From: Octopus vulgaris
Taxonomy: Eukaryota
Length of the DNA: 64,000 nt
Direction: 5' to 3'
NCBI GenBank assembly: GCA_951406725.2
Contig: OX597832.1
Coordinates: forward strand, 24,862,001-24,926,000
In this document: positions 37,381 through 54,203 of the stretch, piece after piece
Layout of the letters: the number at the start of each line of letters is the position of its first letter
Position numbering within the stretch: position 1 is the stretch's first letter
Notes under the pieces: generated by a model
What the model was told of the DNA's origin: nothing
Seen by the model: only the letters and a program-made list of their open reading frames with translations
The model's database searches: none
Translations under genes and position numbers: made by a program

Positions 37381-38005
37381 TATCGGGTGGGATGGGTAAA
37401 TTTTCTATTTTTAATTTCGTGCATTCACATTCTTTGTTTTTGATTTTGTGGACTACACAGTATAGTAGGGTCAGTTGCGCACCGCATGTTAGAAAAACAG
37501 CACCATGGTTCAATTCAATTCAGAAATGTGGAAACGATATGCTCTACTGCTTGGCATTCGCGCCGGAAGCTCCATTACGAACAATTCAGAGTGTTTGGGT
37601 CTCAATCTGAAGACAGTGTAATCTGTGGACATGTACTGAGAGTTATAAGTATCAAACATCCTGTCAAAATCATGGTGTTTGGAGTGATCACTAATGATGG
37701 CTACGTTATGCCTTCATTTATCTTTGCACACGGCTTCAGACGCAAAATGGAAGCCTACAGCAAGTTCCTGGAGTGGATTGTGCTGCCCAGAGTAAAGCAG
37801 AGTCCGCTGAAAGACTATGTCTGGCGACAGGACTCTGCTCCATGCCAGACAAGCATAAGAACGCAGTCATGAGTGTCAGACAATTTCTGTACACACATCA
37901 GCCCTAAAATCTGGTCACCTAATTCTCTCTACTGCAACCTGCTTGATTATTAGGCATGAGGCGCAGTTGAGCGAGAGGCCAACAAAACTCCTTGTAAAAC
38001 CAAAG
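37381..38005 (+). mobile_element. maT (DD37D)-like mariner relic, 3'-truncated
   Basis: KHPVKIMVFGVITNDGYVMPSFIFAHG...YVWRQDSAPCQTS...WSPNSLYCNLLDY; same 5' end as the 13580 copy. Confidence 0.88.
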
Positions 38006-38758: not shown

Positions 38759-39294
38759 TAGATAGATATACATACACGCAAACACACACAGAAACACACA
38801 TATATACGCATACATATACATGAAGAAGCGCATAGATAAATATATGCACATATATTCATTTAATTAATATGTGCGCAGGTGTGTGTATCCATACATGAAT
38901 CTGTGTATTCCGTGTGTGTGTGTATGTGTCTGGGCCTCAAAATTACAGTTCTGTCAGGATAGCTTCCAATGGCAATAAATCAAGTTAGAAATGAAATAAT
39001 AAAGAACGTGAAATTCCTGCAAACACCTACACTTCCTTTCCTCAACAATATGATGTAATTAAGTAAAAATTATATTTCCATCAATACAAAAGTCTGTTCC
39101 GATAATTTAATTAACAAAGAAAATTATATTTCTTAAATATTATTCATTGTCTTCGTAATATTTATCAAAATAATGCTGATTTGTAACAGAGGAAAATGGC
39201 TGATATTTATCATCGAAAATTCTCAGGATATTTTACGTATCCAGCATTCAATAATCCTGTTACGATCCTGTCATTTTGGTCAGTATTTGGGGGG

Positions 39295-39441
39295 TTATTT
39301 ACATTATTTACATTTGACGGATATTTGTTCTCATCTTGTTTGTTGTTAACACAACGTTTCGGCCGATATACCCTCCAGCCTTCTTCAGGTGTCTTGGGGA
39401 AATTTCGAACCTGGTTTCTCATTCCTAAGGTATTTTTCGAA

Positions 39442-39482
<41 letters not shown>

Positions 39483-39494
39483 TATTATTATTAT

Positions 39495-39547
<53 letters not shown>

Positions 39548-39984
39548 TTATTATTATTATTATTATTATTGTTATTATTATTATTATCATCATCATAATC
39601 ATCATCATCATCGTAATCGTCATTATTATTCTGCTGTGTTCCTGGGAGAGTCATTTTGTTTTTGTGCCTTATAATTTAACACACTCACCAGTAATATTTC
39701 CACTTATTTCTTCTTTTTGAAATGGAAATTTTACCGGTGAGTGTGATAAATTATAAGGCACAAAAAGAAAATAACTCTCCCCAGACACAACAGACTATGC
39801 TTCAGCACACGAACTCATATAAAGAATCTTGCAAACCAAATCCAAAAACGAAATATTATTATTATCACTCAGGTCACTGCCTGGAATCGAACTCGGAATC
39901 TTGAGGTCAGTAACCCACGCTCTTAACCACTACACCATATGTAAATAATGTACATAATTCCTCATCTCTTAAACGTAGAACTGT
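39295..39984 (-). mobile_element. Composite tRNA-head SINE/retrozyme-like element with a hammerhead tail and 13-bp TSD
   Basis: TSD agtatttgggggg at 39282-39294 and 39985-39997; A box 39927-39937, B box 39883-39892, hammerhead 39348-39393. Confidence 0.75.
39348..39393 (-). ncRNA. Minimal type-I hammerhead ribozyme
   Basis: Minus strand GACAC-CUGAAGA-A-GGCUG(gaggguauau)CGGCC-GAAAC-GUU-GUGUU: intact core, stems I and II, palindromic minimal stem III, GUU triplet. Confidence 0.75.
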
Positions 39985-40524
39985 AGTATTTGGGGGGATA
40001 TTTTAAGCTGTTTGCTTTTGAGATGATCCAACTATAATACCGATAAAAACCTTTTAATAAATTTTAGTCGACCTTTTCTGGGTAAGTTATTTTATTGGGG
40101 TTCTTAGTAAATATGTATTAAACAATAAAGAATTTTAGTTTATTTTATCGGGAGCTTGTTTATTTATTAATCCTAATTTTTGGCTGTGTTTATTCGTGTG
40201 TGAGTGAGCCTCTGTATCTAAACATCTAGTTTCCACGTATTCGTTGATGTGTATGTACCTCCTGACAGTTTGGTTAAATCTATAGATGTATAGAATATAA
40301 TTTTAGTCAGTGTGACCAAAGTATATTTCATTTTGGTCTGTGTTCAAAATGTTGCTTTCTATTTCATTGAAGGTGATATTTTAATTGTAATTAATTCGGA
40401 GTCTTTGTTTGAGTTTAATTAATTCGGAATCTTTGTTTGTGCTTGTTTGTAATGTGTGTGAGTGTGTGGGTATCTAGTTTTCGAATATTTTCTGATGTGT
40501 TATTTCCTTATGTAACAATGAAGT

Positions 40525-44588: not shown

Positions 44589-44737
44589 CATGAAGGAAGT
44601 AAAAAGAGGCCTTTAATTTTCAAAATTTCTGATCTCAGCGTCTAAATAATGTTTCCAGTGGTGTAGAATTTATTTACAATGTAATTATTCTTTTTCATTC
44701 CAGGAGTCATTATATTAAACATTTGCGAAAGGTAACC

Positions 44738-45100
44738 ATGCCACGTACAAAATATTCAGCAGAACTGTCAGATTTTCAAAGAGGTCGTATTGTTGGACAA
44801 GCTGAGGTTCCTCTTAAGCAGCGAAAAATTGCCGAAAGTCTCCAAATTCTTCTTGCTGCTGTTAATAGAATTATACTGCAATTCAAAAGCCAAGGAAAAG
44901 AATCAACAGATTATCGTCCCGGCCGACCTGGGCCCTCGGAAATGAAGCTTCGCTGTTTGAAGAGAATTGTGGAAAACGAACCCCGTTCGAAGGCTTCTGA
45001 CATTGCAAAACAGCTAGAAGCTAGTCCAAGAACATGTGTTACATATCTGCATAAACTTGGGTATTATGGACGAGCAGCTAGAAGAAAACCTCTCCTTTTG
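44738..45100 (+). pseudogene. Tc1-like transposase N-terminal (paired-like HTH) fragment
   Basis: MPRTKYSAELSDFQRGRIVG...RPGRP...LHKLGYYGRAARRKPLL; catalytic domain absent. Confidence 0.88.
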
Positions 45101-45179
45101 TTAAGTAATGGGCTAAGGAGATGTCAGAAAAATACATACATGTAATAGTATTAAAGTTACATCCAAGCCATACACTGCT

Positions 45180-53883: not shown

Positions 53884-54117
53884 ACTGGCGTTCCGCCGGT
53901 TCAAATGACAAGGGTTCCAGTTGACACGATCAAGGGAACAGCCTACTAGTGAGAATAACATGCAAGTGGCTGAGTACTCCGCAGACACGTGTATCCTTAT
54001 AGCTTAGTTCTCAGGTAGATTCAGAATGACAAAACAGAGTGTGACAAGGCTGACCCTTTGAAATACAGGTACAACTCATTTTTGCCAGGTGAGTGGACTG
54101 GAGCAACATGAAATAAA
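53884..54117 (-). mobile_element. SINE family D, 5'-truncated
   Basis: Reverse complement aligns with 40620-40842. Confidence 0.8.
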
Positions 54118-54203
54118 GTTCGATATTTAAGAGACGAGGAATTATATACATTATTTACAAGATTTACATTATTTGTCCTTGTCCTCATCTTGTTTGTTGT
54201 TAA
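54118..54203 (-). repeat. Tail fragment of the 39295-39984 element family
   Basis: tttaagagacgaggaattatatacattatttac...tcctcatcttgtttgttgttaa joins the two terminal pieces seen at 39295-39350 and 39940-39975. Confidence 0.7.

Follow-up and report, generated by a model that had tools for sequence, protein, structure and literature searches.

An abundant SINE-like repeat of Octopus vulgaris with a tRNA-like head and a hammerhead is the solo pseudo-LTR of a Penelope/Poseidon-type element

Which described elements resemble a short octopus repeat that carries both a tRNA-like head and a hammerhead? As portrayed in those portions of the cited papers that we drew on, Poseidon_Ac (PAc) of Anolis carolinensis encodes a reverse transcriptase (RT) with a C-terminal GIY-YIG in an ORF of ~835 aa that overlaps a hammerhead, and two internal 3' end points bound a 30-40-nt tail inside the start of this ORF; in vitro, reverse transcription of the anole PLE has two internal starts (PMC11167929). 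PLE insertions come with an inverted, truncated partner and have a 30-40-bp tail at one end only (PMC8557442). In the minimal hammerheads of PLEs, helix I is short, helix II is long and preceded on its 5' side by a single unpaired base, and the 15.2-16.2 core is palindromic; they occur as dispersed single motifs, interpreted as truncated PLEs, and as opposite-strand pairs 100-700 bp apart; the portion of that paper used here describes no Pol III head (PMC4209133). Non-coding PLE derivatives with a 3' end common to autonomous families are known from Chlamys, for instance the non-autonomous MRC1, whose clade is not that of the Penelope/Poseidon type and lacks canonical hammerheads, and for which, within the excerpted text, no tRNA head appears (PMC8557442). 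In Schistosoma, SM-alpha and Sj-alpha have a Pol III-type promoter followed by a hammerhead; they are arranged in tandem and set free by cleavage, and single copies have lost the promoter (PMC6765202). Metazoan non-LTR retrozymes, finally, are ~300-nt non-coding units with a type I hammerhead and PLEs as proposed helpers, arranged in head-to-tail tandems that give rise to circular RNA (PMC7229834, PMC7761336). That PLEs mobilise small non-coding elements is a published proposal for which few pairs have been identified (PMC7761336).

Here we report that a repeat in a 64,000-nt stretch of Octopus vulgaris DNA (the window, to which all positions refer) is the solo pseudo-LTR (pLTR) of a decayed Penelope/Poseidon-type element of the same genome, PLE-B. 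The usual partners of SINEs are LINEs; a sequence-only reading of the window had seen in the repeat a SINE that employs PLE rather than LINE machinery, and this much is borne out by two-armed inverted insertions with one long and one short 3' end and by target-site duplications (TSDs). We have high confidence in the PLE origin and mobilisation of the repeat. The reading had further envisaged an autonomous PLE sharing the tail, and PLE-B is such an element; however, it carries the whole unit, head included, and matches the repeat in majority sequence and divergence, so that the notion of a separate SINE borrowing a PLE tail has to be given up.

The window copy lies in AT-rich, gene-poor surroundings within a 2.8-Gb genome. 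Its long arm bears the short 3' end and its 45-nt arm the long one; the two meet head-to-head at 39939-39941 with a 3-nt microhomology (Table 1). The elements first read from the sequence are in place: identical 13-mers flank the copy, the A and B boxes and the hammerhead lie where they had been located, with a GUU site at the predicted cut, the tail piece at 39940-39984 is inverted relative to the remainder of the element, and the two tail pieces are contiguous in the second fragment. Helices I and II of the hammerhead fold, helix I with 5 bp and helix II with 6 bp after one unpaired A, and a palindromic core replaces helix III. The 43 codons of the ORF start in the window match the N-terminus of the PLE protein P0001 (11/20 identical, pairwise E 7e-5). 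A repeat-like stretch at ~53890-54117, which we take to resemble a common SINE of this genome, directly adjoins the second fragment, and short frames at 37444-37872 and 44633-45145 resemble, by eye, decayed pieces of Tc1/mariner transposases.

Table 1. Positions in the window of the features of the repeat copy and of a second family fragment.
Feature	Position	Strand	Remark
Left TSD, 13 bp	39282..39294	+	Same 13-mer at 39985-39997
Right TSD, 13 bp	39985..39997	+	Same 13-mer at 39282-39294
pLTR body, arm with short 3' end; carries PLE ORF start, hammerhead and proximal tail	39295..39444	-	96% to family majority positions 1-150
First 43 codons of PLE ORF, ATG 39422-39420, open as far as TSD	39294..39422	-	N-terminus match to PLE protein P0001
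Minimal type I hammerhead, PLE type, predicted cut 39353/39352	39348..39393	-	Fold; architecture as in PMC4209133 (portion consulted)
Expanded (AAT)n/(AGT)n/(GAT)n tract, variable head-body spacer	39445..39630	-	Wide length variation among copies
Nested ~225-bp hairpin repeat, 62-nt arms and one-sided extension	39631..39853	.	Approximate boundaries
tRNA-like head, from family head position 5; A box 39937-39927, B box 39892-39883	39863..39941	-	
Second, inverted arm with long 3' end (PLE tail)	39939..39984	+	94% to majority positions 129-177
Second, more decayed family fragment, tail pieces contiguous	54117..54203	-	82% to majority positions 96-175

The hairpin within the copy had been recognised correctly, although its arms measure 62 nt at 90% identity (39644-39705 and 39720-39781) instead of the 66 bp initially given. 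Whether it was a secondary insertion had been left in doubt, and this is now settled: the hairpin belongs to another family, with 1765 first-look candidates and flanking repeats of its own (6-17 nt), and was inserted later into the (AAT)n tract of the window copy. As none of seven other hairpin copies lies inside a PLE-B-type element, the hairpin is ruled out as a part of the unit formed by the tRNA-like head and the hammerhead; in Rfam, its miRNA matches all fall below the gathering score. Members of the hairpin family (L218-L224) have two inverted arms and a ~50-nt extension on one side, and the four copies outside microsatellites have flanking repeats of 8-12 nt, a layout resembling two-armed PLE insertions; by analogy, the family may represent the end of a further PLE-type element. 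The (AAT)n spacer often contains or adjoins foreign sequence (L003, L018, L060, L131, L150 and the window copy), and such seemingly frequent targeting by other repeats may explain many head-less bodies.

How large is the family, and how constant is its layout? With the body, the head and the hammerhead-tail as queries, first-look searches gave 2012, 1561 and 1227 candidates, of which the best 30 per query were analysed (87 loci after dropping three duplicates), so that the locus samples are biased towards well-kept copies. The monomer of ~275 nt comprises a 78-nt head, (AAT)n and a 176-nt body. Head and body are linked in 21/30 body-query, 18/28 tail-query and 26/29 head-query loci, the last of these fetched by the head alone and bearing both parts on one strand, in agreement with the head-tail linkage read from the window. 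Five family loci were found in twenty 10-kb stretches at round coordinates (200 kb only), which translates into tens of thousands of copies, roughly 20,000-160,000 on this 200-kb sample alone; 38 loci (~154 kb) fetched for another element held no family locus. Three head-query loci (L039, L049, L058) have a head followed by (AAT)n with no adjoining body and represent interrupted copies or head-only retrocopies, and eight near-identical copies of one insertion on contig C31 (L151-L158), with mostly common flanks, are apparently the result of a segmental or tandem duplication.

The coding parent is tied to the repeat at both ends. At locus L019 a decayed RT/GIY-YIG-type frame runs into the head; with the DNA of this locus as query, the head lies behind the ORF end in 28/30 loci (eight near-identical duplicates on one contig and the query locus included). 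With the 5' part of the ORF as query, the body lies directly upstream in 14/30 loci, an alignment of 11 shows continuity from the tail into the ORF in ten, and pLTR sequence flanks the ORF on both sides in L210, L214 and L215 (hammerhead-containing pLTR). In the order of the unit, the ORF is thus followed, 29 nt after its stop, by the head and (AAT)n, and then by the ORF start with the hammerhead and the tail, after which the ORF continues. The majority sequence of 61 pieces holds one 842-codon frame, with 835 aa from an ATG that lies in the body, upstream of the hammerhead, and this ORF reads through hammerhead and tail (hammerhead core at +35, predicted cut after +70, long end at +154). Over residues 11-831 the identity of the majority protein to P0001 is 56%, and that to an 836-aa Anolis protein, which we infer to be PAc, is 37%. 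A natural 375-aa piece gives an RVT_1 match (E 2.4e-10) and has 46 longer, full-length homologues, and the majority frame combines RT with C-terminal Cys-x-Cys/GET motifs; motif and homology point to a putative C-terminal GIY-YIG-type endonuclease, with no Pfam GIY-YIG match, and the identity to P0001 and the Anolis protein together with the overlap of ORF and hammerhead argues for the Penelope/Poseidon type. The ORF pieces are 5.7% diverged from the majority, the best being 95% identical to it, and none is intact, so that PLE-B looks inactive now. In L200:4365-4789 and L183, ORF pieces abut the beginning or the middle of the body, which suggests template jumps, and backward joints in the contigs of run X17 are similar.

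A second PLE family of the genome, PLE-A, was considered as the partner and ruled out, since this young GIY-YIG family with 781-codon frames has a different hammerhead (U3-A8 core), a different tail and (AT)n ends. Its copies (L121-L128, e.g. L126:1081-5772) are 98-99% identical and have an intact 781-codon RT/GIY-YIG frame, another ORF farther upstream that is up to 479 codons long and has no Pfam match, and the U3-A8 variant hammerhead in the pLTR; PLE-A looks recently active.

The mode of insertion is that of a PLE. Two arms joined head-to-head, with tails outward, are present in 46/87 loci, and 40 of these 46 have one long and one short 3' end, at body positions 166-176 and 140-158, respectively; as a 9-nt repeat blurs the short end, the extra tail is ~26-36 nt long. 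A TSD of 10-16 nt accompanies 26/46 two-armed loci, and 14 of the 26 are of 12-13 nt, compared with 0/271 among mismatched flank pairs. Since the TSD sequence varies between loci, the 13-bp repeat of the window copy is a true TSD, as had been supposed, and not part of the element. Two-armed copies with long and short ends fit the description of PLEs (PMC8557442, as excerpted), and the two 3' ends match the two internal starts of the anole element (PMC11167929, likewise). The 3' part of the unit stems from PLE coding sequence, stops at either of two fixed ends and lacks a terminal repeat, unlike a SINE-type tail, which is LINE-derived, ends in poly(A) or a simple repeat and is primed at one end. 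Where both end types are present, the arms overlap by at least 30 nt in 36/40 loci and by at least 100 nt in 27/40; L1-style twin priming on one RNA is ruled out by the latter, and two templates or re-reading are needed.

PLE-B shares with PAc the general architecture set out above, including a long end 84 nt after the predicted cut as against ~82-89 nt, the latter calculated from numbers in the consulted part of PMC11167929. It differs in the tRNA-like head and (AAT)n of its pLTR, the T4-free sense strand and the mass of head-started solo pLTRs; that part of the paper mentions no tRNA-like head for PAc. Unlike SM-alpha and Sj-alpha, PLE-B copies form inverted pairs, keep the promoter at their 5' end, contain a hammerhead of the minimal type and can be assigned to a coding parent.

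What is new in PLE-B is the presence of a tRNA-like head within its pLTR. Compared with an incomplete set of 33 genomic tRNA loci it aligns best to tRNA-Arg (score 55; maximum of 43 in 300 shuffles), and the A and B boxes are in place and well kept in the majority head, which upholds the description first given. Rfam returned no match at the gathering score in the window and, with the threshold relaxed to E 5, detected no tRNA and no hammerhead in the region, and ARAGORN called no tRNA in five loci; the labels tRNA-like and hammerhead are putative assignments by motif, fold and alignment. Among 54 head-bearing arms from loci not selected on the head, 35 have a 5' terminus in the interval from -6 to +8 (head coordinates), none ends at -30 to -11 and 4 run on into the ORF end, the corresponding numbers for 36 arms of head-selected loci being 28, 1 and 4. 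Most copies thus begin with an A/B-box head, as expected of a SINE. The head-body-ORF copies L209 and L210 also begin at the head (positions 5 and 1, respectively) and carry no 3' UTR in front of it. Metazoan Pol III transcripts end at T4, and the 2,584-nt sense strand of the PLE-B majority sequence has no T4 run, against 2.9-4.6 predicted for the ORF by four null models (P 0.007-0.024; the test, made on a majority sequence, is of moderate strength). In three natural PLE-B copies, T4 runs number 1, 1 and 2 over 2.2 kb, and PLE-A has 8. In a set of 80 related loci from metagenome contigs, 19 have ORFs of at least 450 aa, 17 of them distinct; T4 is absent from 0/17, with 148 observed against 125 expected. 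The 5'-end pile-up and the T4 absence suggest that Pol III transcription likely starts at the head. Translation of an uncapped Pol III RNA would be a difficulty for this reading, and the PLE-B protein may come from other transcripts. An A/B-box pattern search in 318 kb of the 80 related-PLE loci gave three matches (L263, L308, L323), of which the one in L263 belongs to a tRNA-like element of its own that precedes a truncated ORF, the other two being known from their pattern context. Three raw RNA-seq runs from an organism of the same label, mapped to L209, gave thousands of reads in both orientations, ~85% of which continue into unlike sequence, with no pile-up of starts or ends; with strandedness not on record, they say nothing on Pol III, cleavage or circles.

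Taken as a whole, the repeat is probably a solo pLTR of PLE-B, copied from a Pol III transcript that started at the head and inserted by the PLE-B enzyme. Pol III would start at the head and meet no T4 stop in the element. The reverse transcriptase/endonuclease of PLE-B would nick both target strands ~12-13 nt apart, each nick would prime at one of two internal sites just within the ORF, and the two cDNAs would extend in the direction of the RNA 5' end before being joined head-to-head. A copy primed in the first pLTR of the RNA would be the ~275-nt unit, and one primed in the second would comprise pLTR-ORF-pLTR. Solo copies would retain the promoter and the priming sites and could be re-copied in the manner of SINEs, the hammerhead being carried along, mostly uncleaved. 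In a more specific and tentative form of this account, which we put at somewhat below even chances, the whole 2.9-kb PLE-B unit would be transcribed by Pol III from a captured tRNA promoter, and a single RNA with two internal priming regions would give both pLTR-ORF-pLTR copies and a self-propagating tRNA-headed SINE that arose from a Penelope element and is moved by it, without a circular or tandem precursor.

Could the short copies instead be ordinary 5'-truncated PLE copies, made from Pol II or read-through transcripts, in which the head, left in the 3' UTR by an old tRNA-derived insertion, merely travels along and stalls reverse transcription through its structure or the adjoining palindrome? 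PLEs are heavily 5'-truncated (PMC8557442, in the part consulted), short copies equal ORF-linked pLTRs in sequence and age, and a small palindrome lies exactly at the head start, where it could stop the cDNA or fold it back irrespective of a promoter. Furthermore, 4/54 and 4/36 arms pass the head into the ORF end, and only two ORF-linked copies reach the head start, which likewise speaks against the Pol III reading. However, termination per nucleotide reaches 0.05-0.08 at the head start, as opposed to 0.006-0.009 within the structured head and 0.001 upstream, and simple truncation leaves both the T4 absence over 2.58 kb and the well-kept A and B boxes unexplained. We regard truncation as unlikely, if still the strongest competitor of head-started Pol III transcription.

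Far less probable is an independent tRNA-derived SINE with a PLE-derived 3' end and its own master genes, the junctions between ORF and head having arisen by later recombination. It would account for the numerical dominance of short copies over ORF-bearing ones, as the ORF 3' end is found in 0/5 family loci of the 200-kb sample and summed contig depth falls ~100-fold just beyond the tail, as well as for the three head-query loci without an adjacent body and a slight difference in 9-mer repeat counts (small n). It is contradicted by the constant position of the head after the ORF stop (28/30 loci), by the head in front of the ORF in L209 and L210, and by the lack of a lineage distinct from the autonomous partner: short and ORF-linked pLTRs (36 vs 64 body hits and 46 vs 36 head hits) have common majority bases and equal divergence (6.0 vs 5.4%), with no fixed diagnostic differences, and at the few positions with nominal p<0.05 the majority is unchanged.

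What, then, is the role of the hammerhead in defining the ends of the element? Its conserved core and helices I and II are of the minimal PLE kind, as had been noted, with the architecture known from PMC4209133 (portion consulted), and self-cleavage is predicted. That self-cleavage defines the RNA ends does not hold up, however, since the 3' ends lie ~50-58 and 84 nt beyond the cut site. Only 10/107 arms reaching the hammerhead stop near the cut (positions 88-101), and 1/130 starts exactly at it (position 93). The core mismatch is 5.8% vs 7.3% elsewhere (71 copies), with no clear selection signal; a core conserved no better than its surroundings is expected of dead insertions. The predicted dimer fold returned no intermolecular helix III, and no RNA joints at the cut site are among the best-supported joints listed (86 further joints exist; the library type is unsuited). 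The circular RNA that had been suggested as a possibility is likewise unsupported, and so is the tandem layout of retrozymes: most copies have the head-to-head arrangement, in which each strand carries a single hammerhead, and a same-strand pair (L076) is rare. It is highly improbable that the repeat is a non-LTR retrozyme, in which the hammerhead would cut multimeric RNA into monomers, and these would close into circles before a PLE reinserts them: an intact-looking core, a borderline 5'-end excess near the cut (10/32 arms in 88-101, P 0.049, window chosen post hoc) and the proposal of PLEs as retrozyme helpers (PMC7761336, excerpt) are outweighed by the head-to-head instead of tandem copies, ends off the cut, a head-first unit order without permutation at the cut, and the uncleaved RNA that is the main template of the anole element (PMC11167929, excerpt).

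Has the repeat been seen before? Ohshima and Okada reportedly described the octopus tRNA-derived SINEs OK, OR1 and OR2 in 1994. These are 270-410 nt long, and the window repeat may be one of them; the catalogues may well contain the short repeat as a SINE already. OR2 appears among the CORE-SINEs in PMC4758252 (part consulted), and a search of the open literature found no link of OK, OR1 or OR2 to a PLE or a hammerhead. No tRNA-headed pLTR or Pol III-driven PLE was found by full-text searching of open PMC and bioRxiv, and the consulted portion of PMC13282606 with its one supplement mentions neither hammerhead nor Poseidon.

The element is an abundant Penelope/Poseidon-type PLE with a tRNA-like head in its pLTR, yielding SINE-like solo copies. 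With PLE-B the parent has been found, and what looks like a SINE is the terminal repeat of that parent, which opens a route to a SINE without tail capture. The tens of thousands of two-armed, TSD-bearing insertions provide genomic support for the two-site internal priming of the anole element in vitro, and they add to the anole picture that the two priming sites are used on opposite target strands and that the arms overlap. If Pol III transcribes the whole unit, this would offer a simple answer to how PLEs rebuild the 5' pLTR, and it would be a rare case of a protein-coding transposon under a tRNA promoter, an unusual mode of transcription. Part of the SINE annotation in such genomes may be PLE termini.
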